44,612 bases of DNA from Escherichia phage vb_EcoS_bov22_1: sequence record NC_073084.1; one strand, written 5' to 3'. This document shows, piece after piece, positions 6,589-39,007 of the stretch. A program made the translations under genes and the position numbers. How positions within the stretch are numbered: position 1 is the stretch's first letter; each line of letters starts with the position of its first letter. Below the pieces are notes generated by a model, which ran no database searches, was not told where the DNA came from, and was given only the letters and a program-made list of their open reading frames with translations.

Positions 6589-6593
6589 CCAAT

Positions 6594-6917
6594 TTACGAA
6601 TAAAAATTTGGGTCACGTGCGACGTCTACCAGGTAAAGGTTGCTTATGCGGTTGCCGTAGTGCCCTGGTGTGCGCTGGCGGCACACAACGGCGTAGCCAG
6701 GAGGGATTGTATTTCCGGTTTCAATAATCCACGCCACACGCGCGCCCGATAGCGTCTTGCCGTTGCATTCGATACGTGTTCCGCCATCGGCAGTGTTAAG
6801 GTTGCCAATCTTGCAGCCTGTGGACTTCAGGCGGATGACGCCAGTCTTACTGTCGTAGGAAAAAAGCTGATTGGTCATTGCCACTGAAAAGTCGATGGCG
6901 TCGAATGTAGTATTCAT
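6594..6917 (-). CDS. hypothetical protein (possible degenerate HNH-type nuclease)
   Basis: 107 aa; GAGGAA RBS upstream of ATG 6917; PGHYGNRISNL loosely resembles the HNH core. Confidence 0.45.
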   Translation of the reverse strand: MNTTFDAIDFSVAMTNQLFSYDSKTGVIRLKSTGCKIGNLNTADGGTRIECNGKTLSGARVAWIIETGNTIPPGYAVVCRQRTPGHYGNRISNLYLVDVARDPNFYS

Positions 6918-7609
6918 TTTAAATTTTCCTCGTTAACCGCTATCGCGAAGCCGCGCGGAGTGAGCGAGCGGATTAATTTTGTGCGGGCTGATTTACCACC
7001 GAGGCGACTATACTGTTTCGAGTACCCTTTTTCAACGAAAACAGGTTTCTTCTCTGGCATACGGAAGCCGTTGCCGGTCCATAAGCAGGTCAGCTTCGGA
7101 TATGAATCGCGGGCGTTGATGTATTCCGGGAAGAGCGGGTGTACGTCATCCTCCGGCAGATATCCACCATACTCCCACGGATCAAACGAGTGGTCTGGCT
7201 TGCGCCACTGGGTGGAAAGCACACTGCGCGGATTCTCAATCATATATGGCACCTCGAAGAAGTCACCCAGGTAGGCGGCGATCTTCGCGGTGCGCACCGC
7301 CTTAAGCTGAAAGGCCGGGTCTTTCGCACGCTTGCGCGGGAAAGCTGGCGCGCCGCTCACTGCCAGATCCGTACACGGAGGGAACGCATAGATGATATCC
7401 GGCGTACCGAAATCGCCATTCATCGCGCGGTCTACGAAGTCCAGATCGATAAACTCATTGCGATACCGGATTCCGCGGCCATAAATCCGGTAGTCAAGGT
7501 ACGACCCGTGATCGGCTTCGGAGTAGTTAAAACAGTAGCACTTATGCCCCATCTCGGCAGCACGCTCAATCATCAAGCCGCTGCCGTCGAACAATGACCA
7601 GATTATCAT
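6914..7609 (-). CDS. DNA (cytosine-5)-methyltransferase-like protein (short form)
   Basis: FDGSG (motif I FxGxG), FPPC (motif IV catalytic Pro-Cys), ENP (motif VI); only 231 aa. Confidence 0.65.
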   Translation of the reverse strand: MIIWSLFDGSGLMIERAAEMGHKCYCFNYSEADHGSYLDYRIYGRGIRYRNEFIDLDFVDRAMNGDFGTPDIIYAFPPCTDLAVSGAPAFPRKRAKDPAFQLKAVRTAKIAAYLGDFFEVPYMIENPRSVLSTQWRKPDHSFDPWEYGGYLPEDDVHPLFPEYINARDSYPKLTCLWTGNGFRMPEKKPVFVEKGYSKQYSRLGGKSARTKLIRSLTPRGFAIAVNEENLK

Positions 7610-16594: not shown

Positions 16595-18859
16595 ATGAGC
16601 TTAATTAAATTCGCTGTAACAAAACCCGCTAAAAAAGGCGAAAAAGCCAGGGCGGAAAACTTCCAGATGACGACCGATGAGTTTTTCGAATTTATCAAAG
16701 ATGCGAAAGAAATATCCTCGGTGCATATCAACAAGACGGAAGATAAAGCCGAGTATGCGCGCCGCAAGCGTAAGGCCGATGGCATCGTGGCGTATACCAG
16801 TGACGGATTGCGTCGTAAGACCAGTGCGGTGGACCGCTCGATCCTGTTCTTTGATATTGACCGCACCGACACCCGCACCCTGCGCCGCTGCCGTAAGGCG
16901 TTCATCGACGCGGGTCTGGAACACGTATTTCACACCACCACCGGCGACCGCCACCCGCTGAAGGGCGGCACGCGTTGCGCCCGTTTCCTGGTGCTCACTG
17001 ACAAGCCTGTACCGGCTGAAGACCTGGGCCGCGTACAATATGCACTATTACACCAACTGGGTCTGTCAGATGTGGACTTCGACGATTGCACGAAAGACAC
17101 AAACCGCCTGATGTACCTGCCACACCAGCAGTCTGTTATTAAGTGCCACTATGGCAAGCGCGCCAATGTGCGTCGTCTACTCCGTCGGGCGGACAAGCTG
17201 GGGGTGGAAAAAGAGGAAGTACGCCGCGAGCTTACCCAGGGCGACGACGCAGTGGCAGACGGCATTCTGGACTGGTGCTTCCAGGCCGGATTCGAGGAGT
17301 TATCTTCTGGTCGTGGTTATGAAGTGCCGTGTCCTAACGAACATCTGCACAGCGGCGAAGGGTCGACGGCTATCATGGTCAAGGATGGTGAGATCCGTTT
17401 CAAGTGTATGCACACTGGCAACGAGTGTTGCTCGGAACTGAACAGACACCAGCACCTGGCGCTACGTCTTATCGGGATCCCGGACCACCTGAACGTCGAA
17501 CCGCACAACATGTCACGTAAGCAAATCGCCGCCATCCTCCCAGGACTGGACGACGAGGAAGTGGAATCATGCTATGCGCATATCGTTGATGCGGTCGGAG
17601 ACGGCGACGAGTACGGCGTATGTACCGACGCTGACCTGGATAACGAACCGGTCGCACTGTTCAGTAAGCACGACCCTATCATCGAGGGGTTGATTAACTT
17701 TAAATCGACCTGGTATATGGCTGGCGAGTCTAACATCGGTAAATCGTTCTACGTGCTGGGCCAAATGGGCGCTGTTGCCGCGGGTATTCCGTTCGGCGGT
17801 GCGAAGGTCGTCCAGTCTCATTGCTTCTATTTCGACGCGGAAGGTGGCGAAGCCTCCAACCAGCGTAAGGAAGCATTGCAGATCAAATATGAGCACGACC
17901 TGGACAAGCTGCACATTATCGATCTGCAATCACGCGGCTGGGATATCACCAGCAAGTCCGGCTTGCGTGAAGTTATCAGCTTCATCAACCGCACCGCTAA
18001 CGGCGAACCGGTTGGCCTGGTGGCGTTCGACTCACTCAACCAGACGGTTGCGTTGCGGTCCGCCGATGCCAAACCGTTCGACGAGAACAACGCCAGCGAT
18101 ATGGGCGAAGTGGTCAAAGCGCTGAAGGCCATCGCGGAAAATACAGGCGGCAGCGCGGGCGTCATCCACCACCCGGCGAAGGGTGCAAACGGCAGCAGAT
18201 CTCCCCGTGGGTCCGGTGCGCTGCATGGTGCTGTCGATTCTGCGTTCTTCCTGGAGCAACCAGACGACAACCAGCCCGGACAACTGAACCTGTATCACGA
18301 GAAGGCACGTAACGGCATCAAGCAAGCGCCGCGCGGCTTCGTCCTGCTCAAGTGCAAGGTGAAGGTGGATCTCCGCAAGTCCGAGGCGTTCGAGGCACAC
18401 CAGTCCACCAGCACAGGGCCGGACTTCGGCGATGTAGTTGCCGGTTGGGACGTCAAGCCAATTGCATCCACGCCACGCGACGAGACTCTTTACCTCGTAC
18501 CGGTCGCCCTGGCACCGTTCGCCATCGAACAGGCGAAGGCCGCGGGCAAGGCCGCAGTTAAGGAGGAGAACGCCGCAGGACCGCGCAACGAAAAAGAGAA
18601 AGTGCTTTATGCGGCACTGGAAAAACTGATGGAAGATAACCCGGACCATACCGGATTCAGTAAATCGGCAATTGTACGCCAGGCGGGATTGGCAAAAGGC
18701 GGCACATCGACGAAGGCAATCGACGATATGGTCGAGCGCGGCGTGCTCGGTTTTTATACAGATCCGCACACCGGGGCCATCTATGGGTCGTCAAATATCG
18801 TCATCAAAACGAATATACCCATCACGCTTTCGGCGACCGATGACGACCTGAAAGATTAA
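16595..18859 (+). CDS. primase-helicase (N-terminal primase-like domain with Cys/His cluster, C-terminal RecA-like ATPase)
   Basis: 754 aa; Walker A GESNIGKS and RepA/DnaB-like ATPase region; CPNEHLH ... CMHTGNECC zinc-binding-like cluster. Confidence 0.75.
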   Translation: MSLIKFAVTKPAKKGEKARAENFQMTTDEFFEFIKDAKEISSVHINKTEDKAEYARRKRKADGIVAYTSDGLRRKTSAVDRSILFFDIDRTDTRTLRRCRKAFIDAGLEHVFHTTTGDRHPLKGGTRCARFLVLTDKPVPAEDLGRVQYALLHQLGLSDVDFDDCTKDTNRLMYLPHQQSVIKCHYGKRANVRRLLRRADKLGVEKEEVRRELTQGDDAVADGILDWCFQAGFEELSSGRGYEVPCPNEHLHSGEGSTAIMVKDGEIRFKCMHTGNECCSELNRHQHLALRLIGIPDHLNVEPHNMSRKQIAAILPGLDDEEVESCYAHIVDAVGDGDEYGVCTDADLDNEPVALFSKHDPIIEGLINFKSTWYMAGESNIGKSFYVLGQMGAVAAGIPFGGAKVVQSHCFYFDAEGGEASNQRKEALQIKYEHDLDKLHIIDLQSRGWDITSKSGLREVISFINRTANGEPVGLVAFDSLNQTVALRSADAKPFDENNASDMGEVVKALKAIAENTGGSAGVIHHPAKGANGSRSPRGSGALHGAVDSAFFLEQPDDNQPGQLNLYHEKARNGIKQAPRGFVLLKCKVKVDLRKSEAFEAHQSTSTGPDFGDVVAGWDVKPIASTPRDETLYLVPVALAPFAIEQAKAAGKAAVKEENAAGPRNEKEKVLYAALEKLMEDNPDHTGFSKSAIVRQAGLAKGGTSTKAIDDMVERGVLGFYTDPHTGAIYGSSNIVIKTNIPITLSATDDDLKD

Positions 18860-18933: not shown

Positions 18934-18954
18934 GAATAGTTATGCATTGAAACT

Positions 18955-19126
18955 GCATAAACTAAGCGGGACAAAAAGCGGGACAAACAAGGGGCGGGAC
19001 AAAGCGGGACAGCACCCCCGTCCCGCCCCGGATGACGCGGCTTCCAGAGGAGCGGGACAGCGGGACAGCACCCCAGTCTTTCAGACTAGACGGGGGTCAA
19101 CGGCCCCCCTCGTCTGAGACTGAATA
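18955..19126 (+). repeat. structured repeat element, copy A: GCGGGACA iterons plus GC-rich hairpins
   Basis: Six direct GCGGGACA-like copies and one inverted; 10-bp stem GGGGCGGGAC/GTCCCGCCCC; second hairpin AGACGGGGG ... CCCCCCTCGTCT; nearly identical to 36128-36301. Confidence 0.7.
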
Positions 19127-32416: not shown

Positions 32417-32917
32417 ATGTATGGCGACCCGCAAACCTTTGTTATTTATGCCGCTGCGCGAGGCGTTGAAATTACGCCGAGCGACGCAACGCGACACCTT
32501 ACTATCGTTAATGACTTCCTTAACGGCATAGACTGGATCGGCGAACAAGCAGACCCGACCGGAATTGACGCATGGCCCCGCGTCAACTACCCGTCAGACG
32601 GTAAGCCGGTGCGAAACACGCTTACTGAAGATTTGGCAGTAGTTCCCGCGGGGCAGATTGTAGACTTCGCATCAATCCCTGTCGCCGTTGAGCAAGCCGT
32701 TTACCGGCTGGCAATGTTGGTGGCTGACGAGGTCGATATTTCTCCTGTTGGCAGTGGTAAGGAGACTATCCGCGAGACTGTTGGCCCGATCACGATGGAA
32801 TATGACCCCGCGACGATTGGTAGCGGCGTCTCGTTCCCGTGGTGGGATGGCTTGCTGGGCCACTGGGTGAACGTAGACGGCAACGCAGCGGGTAATTTTG
32901 ACGTATTCCGGGGGTGA
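32417..32917 (+). CDS. head completion / head-tail connector protein (putative)
   Basis: 166 aa from ATG 32417 with TAGGAG RBS; call by position only. Confidence 0.45.
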   Translation: MYGDPQTFVIYAAARGVEITPSDATRHLTIVNDFLNGIDWIGEQADPTGIDAWPRVNYPSDGKPVRNTLTEDLAVVPAGQIVDFASIPVAVEQAVYRLAMLVADEVDISPVGSGKETIRETVGPITMEYDPATIGSGVSFPWWDGLLGHWVNVDGNAAGNFDVFRG

Positions 32918-32918
32918 T

Positions 32919-33089
32919 ATGAATCCTGCATTACTGGCGGCTATTATCGCCGCAAATACTAAGCACCAACCAGAACCAGAGCCGGAACCAGAACCAGAGC
33001 CGGAACCAGAGCCGGAACCAGAACCAGAGCCGGAACCAGAACCAGAGCCGGAGCCACCGGTACAGGAGGATGCTAATGGCGGGCTTTAA
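32919..33089 (+). CDS. small protein with (Pro-Glu)n dipeptide repeat
   Basis: ATG 32919 with GGGGGTGA RBS; MNPALLAAIIAANTKHQ followed by about 17 PE repeats; overlaps the next gene start. Confidence 0.45.
   Translation: MNPALLAAIIAANTKHQPEPEPEPEPEPEPEPEPEPEPEPEPEPEPPVQEDANGGL
32968..33056 (+). repeat. tandem hexanucleotide-type repeat (ccagaa/ccagag/ccggaa units) encoding the PE tract
   Basis: Direct reading: gaaccagagccggaaccagaaccagagccg repeated. Confidence 0.7.
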
Positions 33090-34446: not shown

Positions 34447-34507
34447 TTTGGCGCTATTCTGCGCGTGCTGTATCATTAAACCGTATATCTAAACAGGAGC
34501 GTTCATT

Positions 34508-35233
34508 ATGGGTTATCAACTTCCTAACGGGTCTAGCGTCCAGATTGGGTCCGTACTGGGTAGCGGCATCGCTGTTACGGCAGCCACCAACGCCGCCGCG
34601 TCTATCTCCGACCTTACGCAAGGTTGCGTAATTACCTGTGCGTCTTCGCATGGTCTGGTTGTTGGCGACGTTGTTATGTTCACTAAAACCCCGTGGGTCC
34701 GAGCGCTTAACCGCGCATTCATCGTGGGTAAAGTGGACACCAACGACGTTACGCTGGCGCGCTTCGACACCGAAGACGTTACCAAGTATCCTACCGGAGC
34801 GTTTGGTGTAGGCACTCCGGGCGAAGTGGTGAAAGTGTCGAGCTTTATCGACTTCCCGTTTATCACTAACGTTGCCGTGTCGGGTGGTGACCAGCAGACT
34901 ACTACCTTCCAGCCGTTGCAGGTGAACACCGCAATCAGTCTTAACACCACGAAAAACCCGTTGGTACAGACTTACACCTTCACCCACGACGAAGAAGACC
35001 CGATCCGCCCAATCCTGGAAGACCTGGACGACACACAGAAAACCACTGTGATTAAGTTTACGAACCCAGCGGCAGCAAGCGGCAAAGGTGAAATTCGTAT
35101 TTACCCGGCTAAGGTATCTTTCCAGAAGATTCCGTCCGCTGAAGTAAACAACGTGGAAACGGTACAATCCACTCTGACCATGCAGTCAGATATGGTTATC
35201 TACCGCAAGGATCTGGTCGAGGCATTGTCTTGA
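34508..35233 (+). CDS. major tail protein
   Basis: 241 aa, AGGAG RBS, followed by a terminator and the G/G-T chaperone and tape-measure genes. Confidence 0.7.
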   Translation: MGYQLPNGSSVQIGSVLGSGIAVTAATNAAASISDLTQGCVITCASSHGLVVGDVVMFTKTPWVRALNRAFIVGKVDTNDVTLARFDTEDVTKYPTGAFGVGTPGEVVKVSSFIDFPFITNVAVSGGDQQTTTFQPLQVNTAISLNTTKNPLVQTYTFTHDEEDPIRPILEDLDDTQKTTVIKFTNPAAASGKGEIRIYPAKVSFQKIPSAEVNNVETVQSTLTMQSDMVIYRKDLVEALS

Positions 35234-35263
35234 TTTGGTCGCTTAAATAGCGAGTGATAATAT

Positions 35264-35287
35264 GGGGCCAGCACGGCCCCTTTTTTA
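35264..35287 (+). terminator. rho-independent terminator
   Basis: ggggccagcacggcccc followed by T6. Confidence 0.65.
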
Positions 35288-35302
35288 TTGGAGAATACTA
35301 CA

Positions 35303-35665
35303 ATGGCTAAAGCACCACTCTTTACACTTGACCCTAAGCCGACCTTTAAGCTGCCGATTGAGATCCCGCGCCCTGGAGAGAACGAACCCGGCAAGATGAC
35401 GTTTACCGTACGCCACCGCCCGATCGACGAATTTTCGCAAACCATGCAGGACACCGAACGAAAGCTATCGGAATATGACGACAATGACCCGGACGGCTTT
35501 AACGTTATGGTCGAGGCCATCATGCACGTCGCGGAAGGCTGGAATCTGCCAGACGAATTTAACGCGGAGAACGTCCGCCGCCTGGTGGTCAACTACCCAC
35601 GCGCGTTCGGTGTGTTCCACACGTCGTACTATCTCGAACTGATGGGATTGCGTGAAAAAAACTAA
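35303..35665 (+). CDS. tail assembly chaperone (gpG-like)
   Basis: ATG 35303 with GGAG RBS; position between major tail and tape-measure genes; ends just after a slippery heptamer. Confidence 0.65.
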   Translation: MAKAPLFTLDPKPTFKLPIEIPRPGENEPGKMTFTVRHRPIDEFSQTMQDTERKLSEYDDNDPDGFNVMVEAIMHVAEGWNLPDEFNAENVRRLVVNYPRAFGVFHTSYYLELMGLREKN

Positions 35666-35979
35666 TTGAGGCGGCGCGACGCTTTTATGGCCCGCCGCCA
35701 CCCTCCGAAGATTTAGCCGCAAGTTTATGGGGCGCGGCCCCCGAAGATGTTTGTCCGCCTGTTGCGCTATGGCCTGACAACGCGAAGATAGTCGCGGTCT
35801 TCACAGATTGCGCCACGCAATGGCGCACCGGATTTGGTGGCGCATACGGCATCGACTACGGCGTGCTGGAGTGGTTATTTAAGATGCACGGTATCGAAAA
35901 CGAACAGCGCGCGTTTAAAGATATCAAGCTAATGGAACGAATCGCGCTTGATGAGATGGCGCAGCAGAACCCCGCATAA
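35303..35979 (+). CDS. tail assembly chaperone frameshift product (gpG-T-like) via -1 programmed frameshift
   Basis: Slippery A AAA AAC at 35656-35662; the -1 frame is open from there to TAA 35977-35979 with no plausible start of its own. Confidence 0.5.
35656..35662 (+). promoter_or_regulatory. -1 ribosomal frameshift slippery heptamer A AAA AAC
   Basis: X XXY YYZ pattern in the zero frame, two codons before the chaperone stop. Confidence 0.5.
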
Positions 35980-35982
35980 TGA

Positions 35983-36120
35983 AGCGGGACAAAACGGGAT
36001 GTCCCGTTTTGTCCCACCCCACAAATGTGCATATCTAATCACTTCCATTGCATAATCTAAAAGCGGGACAATCGGGACGTCCCGTTTTGTCCCACCCCAC
36101 AAATGTGCATACCTATTCGG
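35983..36120 (+). repeat. two tandem ~79-bp units, each with a 30-bp GGGAC-based palindrome next to a promoter-like TTGTCC-17 nt-TATCTA/TACCTA
   Basis: Perfect inverted repeat gggacaaaacggga-tg-tcccgttttgtccc at 35986-36015; degenerate copy 36065-36093; each followed by accccacaaatgtgcata. Confidence 0.6.
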
Positions 36121-36127
36121 ATTTCGT

Positions 36128-36301
36128 GCATAAACTAAGCGGGACAAAAAGCGGGACAAACAAGGTGCGGGACAAAGCGGGACAGCACCCCCGTCCCAGC
36201 CAGTGCTGCCGCGGTTTTTAGCCGATCGGGACAGGCGGGACAAACCCCAGTCTTTCAGACTAGACGGGGGTCAATGGCCCCCCTCGTCTGAGACTGCATA
36301 A
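36128..36301 (+). repeat. structured repeat element, copy B (GCGGGACA iterons plus hairpins)
   Basis: About 70 nt then about 60 nt near-identical to 18955-19126, with a divergent central segment; in the second hairpin the single C/T difference falls in the loop. Confidence 0.7.
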
Positions 36302-36364
36302 GGTTTGTTTTAAATTCGCTGATACAATATCAATCGGCAACTGCATAAAAAAGGGGACTGCATA

Positions 36365-39007
36365 ATGGCAGATCAAGCAGCAGGCATCACGCTAAAGGTC
36401 GATGCCACACAAGTCAGAACGGCAAATACGGCGCTGGACTCGTTCGCACAGAAGTCCGAGACTACGGAATGGAAAGCTAAGAAATTAAACGACACACTCG
36501 GCAACACGAAAAAGGTGACGGGTGACGCCGCGGGCGGAATGGGGAAGCTGGCGAACGAATCGCAGCGCGCCGCCGATGGCATGACGAAACAAGAGCGACT
36601 TGCCAACCGGTTAGGCATGTCGACCAAAAACCTGGGCTTTGCCTCGCGTAACGCCGCATTCCAGTTACAGGATATTGCGGTAACGCTTGAGATGGGTATG
36701 CCTGTTCACCGCGTCATGCTTCAGCAGTTACCGCAGCTAACTGGGGCGTTCGGTGGACTGGGTAACACGCTGCGTTTTGTTGCGGGCTTCCTCGGCCCAG
36801 TGGGGATCGGCCTTGCTGCCTTGACGGCAACGTTAGGCGTAGGGGTGGCAATTACGTCCCGCGCAGAAAACCAGGTCGCAGCGCTTAACAAGACGCTGGC
36901 GCTGTCAGGTAACATTTCCGGCCTAACTGCAAACCAGATCCTGGTGCTATCCGAGAACGCCGAGCGCATGGGCGGGTCGTTCCGCAAGACGCGTGACACA
37001 ATCCAGGCGCTGGCGGCGGCGGGTGTGAAAGCGGGTGGTGACTTCGGCGCACTGGCGAAGGTAGTGAATGACTTCGCGAAGGTGTCCAGCCAGCCGATCG
37101 AGGATGTGGTCGCGGCGGTGGCTAAGCTGTCTACCGACCCGGTAGGTGGCTTGCGAGCATTGGCGGATAAGTATCACGTCGTAAACGAAGCGCAGATCCA
37201 GCAGGTACAATCCCTGGTGGATATGGGTCGTGAGACTGAAGCGGTGGCGCTGGCTAATAAAACAGCCGCGGCGTCGTTCACCACCATGACCAACGATATT
37301 AAGTCCAACATGGGAACGCTCGAGCGGTCGATGAACATCGTCACATCGGCAGCGAAATCTATGTGGGATGCAATCCTGGATGTTGGACGCGCGCAGTCCT
37401 CGAATGAGTCCGAGATGAAAGCGCGTGAGTCATTGCAGCGACTGACCACGGCTTACTATGCCGAGATGAAAGCGGTAAACGCTGCCGGTGGGGTGATGAC
37501 CGAAGCGCAGAAAGCGCGTATTAACATGCTTTACAGCGAACTGGTAGCCCAGGAAAAAGTAGTGGCGTCGCTAACCCTGCGTAACCGTGCCGAGCGAGAC
37601 AACGCCAGCGCCGCGGAACAATCAGCGAAGGCGAACGAGGAGGCCAACCGCACCGCCCGCGACCGCGCCGCGTTCGAGAAGGAGTACGCGACCAACGCGA
37701 AGCGGCGCGCCGACGAGATCGCCCGCCTCAATTTGCTGAATAAGCGCGGCGTGATTGATGAGAAAGAACTTGCCGAGGCGGTGAAGCAGGTCAACGAGCG
37801 TTACAAAGACCCCGCCCCGAAGAAGGCCGCCGCTGTTCGAGTCGATGCAGGGATGAAAATGCTGGAAGTAGCACGGAGCGAACTGGCACAGCTTCGTGAG
37901 TCTGGAAAGCAGATCGAAGCCAACGCATCGACGCAGACCCGCACGCAACGCGCGCAAGCGGCCTTAAACAAGCTGATCGCGGATAATGAGCAGTTAATTG
38001 CTGCGAGCAAAGAAAGAGCGCTAACGGCAGCCGAAAAGCAGCAGATGGTAGAATTCGGACGCGTGAAGGAAGTGCGCGAGCAGATCGTCGAAGAAGCCAA
38101 ATTGCTGGACGCGAAAGAGAAGCAGGTCAAGGCGCACGCGCAGATCGACGCCTTCGTTAAGAACCAGAACGCCGAGCTAAAAGCCACCGCGGCGGGCTAT
38201 GCGCTTTCCACTCGCGAAGCGGCTAACCTGCGCGAAGAATTGCAGCTAATTGATCGCCTTAAGCGGGTTGGCGCTAGTGATACCGATATTGATCTGGCGG
38301 TGTCTAAGCTGCGCGAAGTGCAGGAAGCACAGACAGGGGCTAACGCCTCGCTATGGGATGGCTTCAGCCGCGGGCTTAAGGATAGCGTGGATGATATGGG
38401 TAACGGATATACGCAGATGGCGTCACTCACAAAATTCACGTTCGGCGCTATGCAGGACACGATGAACAAGTTTTTCGAGACTGGCAAGCTGAACGCAAAG
38501 GATATGGTTAAATCCATCCTTAGCGAATTAATCAAGCTGGCTACATCGCAGGCATTCAAGTCCATCGTTAGCGCTTTCGGTGGCGACGGCGGCAAAAACG
38601 GATTGTTCGGCGCTATCTTCTCGGGCCTAACTAAGAATGCGGACGGAGGAGCGTACGCAGGGGGCAATCTCGCGGCCTATTCGGGGAAAGTGGTAAGCCA
38701 GCCAACCTTTTTCAGTTATGGCGTCCAGGCGTTCGCTAAGGGCGCAGGATTGATGGGGGAGGCTGGACCCGAGGCTATCATGCCGCTTAAGCGCGGCCCG
38801 GACGGAAAACTGGGCGTTGCCGCTGCCGGTGTAGGCGGAGGGATGATTGTAACAACCAACGTTAACATGGGGACCGGTAAGACGGATACCAGTGTTAGCG
38901 GACCAGACCCGCGCACAGCGCAGGCGTTCGGAAAGCAAATCACCGAGTCGGTCAAGGCCGAGATCGTGAAGGCGACGAAACCGGGTGGTGTACTTTACAA
39001 ACGATGA
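36365..39007 (+). CDS. tail tape measure protein
   Basis: 880 aa, largely Ala/Gln/Lys/Glu-rich with Gly-rich segments; follows the G/G-T chaperone; AAGGGGA RBS. Confidence 0.8.
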   Translation: MADQAAGITLKVDATQVRTANTALDSFAQKSETTEWKAKKLNDTLGNTKKVTGDAAGGMGKLANESQRAADGMTKQERLANRLGMSTKNLGFASRNAAFQLQDIAVTLEMGMPVHRVMLQQLPQLTGAFGGLGNTLRFVAGFLGPVGIGLAALTATLGVGVAITSRAENQVAALNKTLALSGNISGLTANQILVLSENAERMGGSFRKTRDTIQALAAAGVKAGGDFGALAKVVNDFAKVSSQPIEDVVAAVAKLSTDPVGGLRALADKYHVVNEAQIQQVQSLVDMGRETEAVALANKTAAASFTTMTNDIKSNMGTLERSMNIVTSAAKSMWDAILDVGRAQSSNESEMKARESLQRLTTAYYAEMKAVNAAGGVMTEAQKARINMLYSELVAQEKVVASLTLRNRAERDNASAAEQSAKANEEANRTARDRAAFEKEYATNAKRRADEIARLNLLNKRGVIDEKELAEAVKQVNERYKDPAPKKAAAVRVDAGMKMLEVARSELAQLRESGKQIEANASTQTRTQRAQAALNKLIADNEQLIAASKERALTAAEKQQMVEFGRVKEVREQIVEEAKLLDAKEKQVKAHAQIDAFVKNQNAELKATAAGYALSTREAANLREELQLIDRLKRVGASDTDIDLAVSKLREVQEAQTGANASLWDGFSRGLKDSVDDMGNGYTQMASLTKFTFGAMQDTMNKFFETGKLNAKDMVKSILSELIKLATSQAFKSIVSAFGGDGGKNGLFGAIFSGLTKNADGGAYAGGNLAAYSGKVVSQPTFFSYGVQAFAKGAGLMGEAGPEAIMPLKRGPDGKLGVAAAGVGGGMIVTTNVNMGTGKTDTSVSGPDPRTAQAFGKQITESVKAEIVKATKPGGVLYKR

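Follow-up and report, generated by a model that had tools for sequence, protein, structure and literature searches.

The stretch analysed here, 44,612 nucleotides from Escherichia phage vb_EcoS_bov22_1 (NC_073084.1; the window hereafter), carries two overlapping reading frames between its major tail protein gene and its tape measure protein gene. The first, G (35303-35665, + strand), is an open reading frame (ORF) of 120 aa and 13.96 kDa predicted to encode a tail assembly (tape-measure) chaperone. The second, T (35662-35979, +), continues in the -1 frame for 105 sense codons and ends with the TAA at 35977-35979. The heptamer A_AAA_AAC stands at their junction, and we propose that a programmed -1 ribosomal frameshift on this site very probably yields both G and a longer G-T protein.

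G starts with the ATG at 35303, and a GGAG is found 9 nt upstream, at 35290-35293; the ORF listing had given the in-frame TTG at 35288, upstream of this ATG, as the start. The product matches the Pfam family PF08748 (Phage_TAC_4) with an E-value of 1.4e-23 and 83.9 bits (gathering cut-off 21.1), in an alignment that runs end to end (G residues 1-120 on model positions 1-124 of 124), and it matches phrog_569 with E=1e-40. The T extension matches PF08809 (DUF1799) with E=7.2e-21 and 74.7 bits (gathering cut-off 26), the domain spanning extension residues 25-101 and the complete model (positions 1-80 of 80), and phrog_680 with E=4e-30. Moreover, the profile of PHROG family 17368 (213 positions) matches G with its first half and T with its second, which would be expected if some members of this family had been annotated as fusions. 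The functions attributed to G and T are assignments by Pfam family, PHROG and synteny.

Geometry of the shift site

The 3' end of G reads ATG GGA TTG CGT GAA AAA AAC TAA, then TTG AGG. An earlier note on this sequence had pointed to the heptamer A AAA AAC at 35656-35662 (+), whose 0-frame codons are AAA AAC, and reading of the sequence confirmed it. The same note let the chaperone ORF end two codons after the heptamer, which is wrong: the AAC at 35660-35662 is the last sense codon, and the 0-frame stop of G, the TAA at 35663-35665, abuts the heptamer. On the other side, translation of the -1 frame gives a TGA at 35653-35655, immediately 5' of the heptamer, which forms the upstream limit of the shift window, and the -1 frame opens exactly at the heptamer (35656). 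Given these two stops, the frames can be joined only within the 10 nt from 35656 to 35665, and these 10 nt consist of a canonical X_XXY_YYZ heptamer and the stop. As the AAC of the heptamer is the last codon of G, a change of frame must fall within this interval.

The -1 frame is open over 35656-35976 (107 codons), and the 105 codons claimed in the earlier note are obtained when the count begins with the CTA at 35662. The first ATG, GTG or TTG in this frame is the GTG at 35863 (codon 70), which leaves an ORF of 38 aa and lies inside DUF1799; the claim that the extension has no plausible start of its own therefore held as well. The fusion, join(35303..35662, 35662..35979), has 225 aa and a computed mass of 25.61 kDa.

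Several figures speak against a chance occurrence, the DUF1799 match of the open frame among them. In a crude gene set that omitted G itself, 22 in-frame X_XXY_YYZ heptamers were counted in 12,982 codons, and AAAAAAC occurs three times in the whole window, both strands included. Under the phage's own codon usage, the residues E-K-N would be written as GAA-AAA-AAC with a probability of about 0.17.

Conservation of the site, the T domain and a downstream hairpin

In a megablast search, a 1.9-kb query (34500-36400) was 100% identical over its whole length to Escherichia phage vb_EcoS_bov16_1 (MT884013.2) and matched 157 phage records, nearly all of them Dhillonvirus (HK578/SO-1-like E. coli siphoviruses); by these matches the source phage is a Dhillonvirus. 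Eighty relative loci were collected from IMG/VR, from which all of the prophage diversity comes, with the G alignment and two peptide patterns. AAAAAAC stands directly before the stop in 79 of the 80 loci, and these loci together with T1, HK639, phiES15, TR2 and the window hold 37 distinct 62-nt sequences. T1, HK639, phiES15 and TR2 have the identical A_AAA_AAC followed directly by TAA or TGA, with T parts 35-46% identical to T here, the T1 site having a run of six A only. At the equivalent place, Xp10, Acinetobacter phage Silvergun and Ralstonia phage YO028_2 have G_GGA_AAC and TGA. In Sabo and phiJLA23 the site is of the A_AAG type, and VAC70 and Snook carry a related A_AAA_G tetramer. In every examined relative with an X_XXA_AAC site, the stop abuts the heptamer.

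The T frame is kept as well. It is open for 103-108 codons in 78 of the 80 relatives, the exceptions being the loci labelled L061 (41 codons) and L067 (T domain absent). The latter (IMGVR_UViG_3300010279_000018, at about locus position 1820) has AAAAAAT and TAG at the site and unrelated sequence in place of the T domain, and may be a degraded or rearranged prophage. Nineteen distinct Dhillonvirus-type sequences were aligned over the G-T region; their variable sites at codon positions 1, 2 and 3 number 43, 26 and 86 in T, read in the -1 frame, and 37, 25 and 89 in G, read in the 0 frame. This bias cannot separate T from an antisense ORF at 35685-35852, whose third positions coincide with those of T. 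The antisense frame is interrupted by stop codons in two of the relatives, L020 and L023, in which T stays open, and it is therefore a shadow ORF.

With the 107-aa extension as query, tblastn matched 1153 phage records, and in 799 of these the match takes in 80% or more of the query. In the loci that were opened, the T match begins 10 nt short of the 3' end of the preceding chaperone coding sequence (CDS). A search of 1.84 billion cluster representatives gave 1060 proteins that match T. The best 150 of these are all 38-150 aa long with ragged N-termini, and no in-frame chaperone-T fusion is found among them. Those T-match ORFs that reach upstream carry KKL or GKL just before the conserved region, which corresponds, from the codons involved, to the X_XXA_AAC_U heptamer in its -1 reading.

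Over the 50-60 nt downstream of the heptamer, and after a 7-nt spacer, the RNA is predicted to fold into a hairpin (35670-35699, +; arms GGCGGCG 35670-35676 and CGCCGCC 35693-35699) with a minimum free energy of -17.1 kcal/mol and a z-score of about -1.5. It is this local hairpin alone that stands out, the 85-nt fold from the heptamer having no excess stability (z +0.21), and an Rfam scan of 35200-36500 returned no family except a sub-threshold SraG match. All seven distinct Dhillonvirus sequences form the hairpin in the same columns of the segment (15-44), as do L023, T1 and many HK639-like loci, with z-scores of -4.6 in T1 and -2.3 in L023, whose G is 62% identical; in TR2 and phiJLA23 these columns do not form it. 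Covariation was examined in 12 representatives from about four clades, in an ungapped codon-homologous alignment. The seven hairpin pairs form in 78.6% of cells, compared with 33-67% when the register is slid; changes on both sides occur in four of the seven pairs (C-G to U-A and G-C to C-G, for example), and none of 500 shuffles reached the observed covariation score. Synonymous variation is also low over this part: at 35650-35700, 2-6 of 17 third positions are variable, against 53-79% across both ORFs (hypergeometric P 7e-5 to 3e-4 in the Dhillonvirus set). Such a dip is the mark expected of an RNA element that overlaps coding sequence, and the hairpin is probably a frameshift stimulator, to which the stop adjoining the heptamer may also contribute.

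Proposed expression of the T frame

The geometry of the two ORFs and their domain identities, together with a conserved site, a conserved -1 frame and suppressed synonymous change over site and hairpin, argue for a programmed -1 ribosomal frameshift that yields G and G-T, which we regard as very probable. Most ribosomes would end at the TAA at 35663-35665 and release the 120-aa G, while a minority would shift back by one base on A_AAA_AAC. The Lys and Asn tRNAs might re-pair together from AAA-AAC to AAA-AAA, or the Asn tRNA might slip alone with the stop in the A site. The shifted ribosomes would then read CTA ATT GAG and onward in the -1 frame to the TAA at 35977-35979, giving a 225-aa product whose C-terminal part would be the DUF1799 domain. 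The GC-rich hairpin, possibly with the adjacent stop, probably pauses the ribosome over the slippery site.

The G/G-T frameshift was first shown in lambda and has been found across long-tailed phages (PMC5009743; references in PMC5313236). In lambda, the -1 frameshift occurs at G_GGA_AAG (Levin et al. 1993; Xu, Hendrix & Duda 2004, 2013, 2014, as cited in PMC5009743 and PMC5313236). The two lambda proteins, G and G-T, in a ratio of about 30:1, both bind the tape measure protein, G-T also binding the major tail protein through its T domain; neither is present in the virion (PMC5009743). By analogy, G and the G part of G-T might coat the tape measure protein, the presumed client here, while the T part would recruit the major tail protein. 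A fixed low ratio of G-T to G would then be required for tail assembly, and neither protein would be expected in the virion.

As in lambda, two overlapping ORFs lie between the major tail and tape-measure genes, the second in the -1 frame and without a start, an X_XXY_YYZ heptamer stands near the end of G, and the short and long products would share the N-terminal chaperone part. The heptamer is A_AAA_AAC here instead of G_GGA_AAG, and both the 0-frame stop and the upstream -1 stop abut it, whereas the lambda site lies five sense codons before the G stop. A GC hairpin follows downstream here, unlike in lambda, and T and the tape-measure gene lie 385 nt apart, with repeat-rich non-coding DNA between them, in contrast to the overlapping T and H of lambda. 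From these comparisons, the locus appears to share the strategy and the gene position of lambda G-T, with families (Phage_TAC_4 and DUF1799) that are not those of lambda.

Closer parallels are found in T1, TR2, HK639, phiES15, Snook and Scapp, which have the same two Pfam families in the same order; in this group the T part is 31-46% identical to T here. In Webervirus (Snook, VAC70) the A_AAA_G-type site lies one codon before the stop, unlike the abutting site here, and in T1-like and related phages the tape-measure gene follows within about 40 nt of T, in contrast to the 385 nt here. The GenBank record of Klebsiella phage Snook has a joined CDS named "tape measure chaperone, frameshift product", and in Serratia phage Scapp two entries called "tape measure chaperone", of 129 and 236 aa, are each hit by the G model. 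The conserved G/G-T arrangement of long-tailed phages (Xu, Hendrix & Duda 2004), which the earlier note had recognized at this locus, shows all its sequence-level hallmarks here and is supported by synteny, by the startless extension, by the heptamer conserved in position and by the joined CDS of Snook. Frameshifts have also been predicted in other genera. In Acinetobacter phage Loki (gp12/gp13), AAAAAAC was noted adjacent to the chaperone stop (PMC5313236); in Edwardsiella phage eiAU, a relative of SO-1, a frameshift was predicted for ORF22/23 (PMC3025963). In BFVD, the G model finds its best match, by structure and by sequence, in the protein listed as Gp15 of eiAU (36% identity).

The E. 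coli dnaX gene offers a second comparison, with its -1 frameshift at A_AAA_AAG, a downstream hairpin and an upstream Shine-Dalgarno-like element (PMC5009743). The present site resembles it in the A-rich heptamer, the P-site Lys tRNA and the GC-rich hairpin a few nt downstream. Unlike in dnaX, the A-site codon is AAC (Asn) and not AAG, and the shifted product would be longer, not shorter. No clear Shine-Dalgarno-like stimulator was found upstream of the site, where a conserved Gly codon at a distance of 8 nt contributes no more than GGGA/GGGG. Structure-stimulated sites of this type would have a stable RNA structure 5-9 nt downstream of the heptamer, supported by covariation.

Among other ways in which the T frame could be expressed, slippage of RNA polymerase on the A7 run at 35655-35661 is very unlikely. 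An extra A in some transcripts would place G-T in a single frame (...E K K L I E...), and the run is one of two A7 runs in the window; fusions of this sort are known to arise when transcription slips on A/T runs (PMC5009743). However, T1 keeps its site with a run of only six A, and the GGGAAAC of Xp10, Silvergun and YO028_2 contains no homopolymer run. What is conserved is the in-frame X_XXY_YYZ pattern and, downstream, the hairpin at a ribosome-pausing distance. Ribosomal slippage is therefore favoured, since the in-frame heptamer is conserved and the length of the A-run is not. A run of seven A is, moreover, shorter than those on which E. coli RNA polymerase slips efficiently, which counts against the transcriptional route. 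The two routes would differ in their junction peptides, ...EK-N-LIEAAR for the ribosomal and ...EK-K-LIEAAR for the transcriptional one.

The chance that T is translated independently is slimmer. Translation would begin at the ATT at 35665, which overlaps the G stop, or at the GTG at 35863, perhaps by coupling of termination and reinitiation. The SO-1 and HK578 records do start a CDS at the base equivalent to 35665, protein P0003 begins MEAARR, and the bov16_1 and CS16 records annotate a GTG-started fragment. However, the ATT is not conserved, being AAA in T1, AGG in HK639 and ATC in phiES15, and in these three phages the similarity of the T protein extends from the heptamer onward despite the differing codon. 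Inspection of the sequence 5' of 35665 revealed no Shine-Dalgarno-like sequence at the proper distance. A start at the GTG would keep only the last third of the DUF1799 domain, and the N-termini called for T are ragged across the family.

It is extremely unlikely that G is the sole product and that the -1 frame goes unexpressed, open by chance or left over from a gene in decay: L067 lacks the T domain and L061 has a shortened T, but against this reading stand the DUF1799 match, the bias of T variation to third positions, the intact frame in 78 of 80 relatives and a domain held by 1153 phage records and 1060 cluster representatives.

Some points weigh against the programmed ribosomal frameshift. 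In E. coli, A_AAA_AAC shifts weakly by comparison with A_AAA_AAG (PMC5009743); weak shifting would still be compatible with the model because the required proportion of G-T is low. One of the two patterns used to fetch the relative loci demanded ...KN at the C-terminus of G, so that conservation of these amino acids is partly a matter of ascertainment, while that of the codon choice is not. The hairpin shows only a modest excess of stability, 15 of 200 shuffles folding as well as that of the window, and in TR2, phiES15 and phiJLA23 it is either missing or weak; the structure scored for covariation was derived from one of the representatives. Sequence similarity to lambda G and T was not detected, hhalign giving probabilities of 0.1% and 1.3% with shallow profiles of 6 and 4 sequences. 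The model of G (predicted local distance difference test score, pLDDT, of 67) gave no specific match among solved structures, chaperones included, and a sequence search of the PDB with G found no match. The fold of tail assembly chaperones, described as "spiral" chaperones, was reportedly solved by Pell et al. in 2013. The model of T was too poor (pLDDT 48.8) and was left out of the fold search, and a homologue search returned two matches for the fusion and one for T alone, too few for deep alignments. For this phage, we infer from sequence that G-T is made, in what share, what the hairpin does and which partners are bound.

Within the frameshift model, a more specific reading is possible, which we consider rather unlikely: the signal of the Phage_TAC_4/DUF1799 family might be a compact cassette made of X_XXA_AAC, an abutting 0-frame stop and, in several lineages, the hairpin 7 nt downstream, the shift taking place while the ribosome waits at the stop codon. 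The hairpin arms would then also encode the conserved residues E/R-A-A and P-P in T, and slippage of the P-site Asn tRNA would compete with release factor at the stop. If this were true, the ratio of G to G-T would be set by the efficiency of termination, and the mechanism would be unlike that of lambda, whose slip site lies five codons before the stop.

Annotation and surrounding genes

The two frames are joined in none of the five Dhillonvirus records that we opened, and the chaperone is labelled "hypothetical" there. In the bov16_1 record, the T frame is represented by a 38-aa fragment from the GTG (35863-35979, +) and by the antisense ORF, entered as "hypothetical protein" (35685-35852, -); the CS16 record has the same 38-aa fragment, which is the tail end of DUF1799. 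The SO-1 record gives a separate gp16 that starts with the ATT on the last base of the G stop, as does the HK578 record, and in the UDS3lw record G alone is annotated. A single CDS, join(35303..35662, 35662..35979), would replace the fragment, ATT-started and shadow ORFs in these records. The mechanism is well known and standard, the instance in this phage being unannotated, and no open question is altered by it. Dhillonvirus would follow the near-universal siphovirus rule for tail-length assembly, and the heptamer, stop and hairpin conserved across T1-like, HK639-like and Dhillonvirus phages would form a natural series for studying how a weak A_AAA_AAC site is tuned.

The surrounding genes are those of a tail cluster. 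Upstream lies the major tail (tube) protein gene (34508-35233, +; PF08813 Phage_tail_3, E=1.6e-32; phrog_584, major tail protein, E=3e-74) and downstream the tape measure protein gene (36365-39007, +; PF06791 TMP_2, E=2e-42; PF09718, E=1.6e-13; phrog_24, E=2e-180), itself followed by lambda M-, L- and K-like minor tail proteins. The order of families is thus PF08813 major tail, PF08748 chaperone, -1-frame PF08809 extension and PF06791/PF09718 tape measure. Between the major tail gene and G, a pattern scan found a strong terminator-like GC hairpin with a T-run (35264-35287, +; six GC pairs, then TTTTTTATTG). The HK639 and CS16 records likewise annotate an equivalent terminator, and this hairpin may keep transcription into G, T and the tape measure gene below that of the tube protein.

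The 385 nt from the stop of T to the tape-measure start (35980-36364) are non-coding and dense in repeats, which is unusual for this gene cluster. They contain two direct copies of about 69 nt, each with a GGGACA...TGTCCC palindrome, and six GCGGGACAA units, a motif found 10 times in the window against 0.5 expected. The second half of this stretch, including a long hairpin CAGTCTTTCAGACTAGACGGGGG...CCCCCCTCGTCTGAGACTG, is duplicated at 18945-19125, just after the helicase-primase gene (16595-18859). The SO-1 record names the repeat stretches "region A" and "region B", and the HK578 record places a terminator at the first palindrome. An origin, binding sites of a regulator or a small RNA are candidate roles for them.

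A whole-window statistic of -1 extensions past stop codons was also tried and set aside as confounded, most long extensions being the next gene with a start of its own. The gene at 6913-7609 (-) has in-frame A_AAT_TTA and T_TTA_AAA 2-3 codons before its stop and a 106-codon open -1 frame beyond, which is most likely the next gene (6593-6917) with its own start. Finally, a putative small ORF between the head-tail connector genes (32898-33089, +) encodes a long Pro-Glu repeat (…QPEPEPEPEP…) of about 22 PE units.

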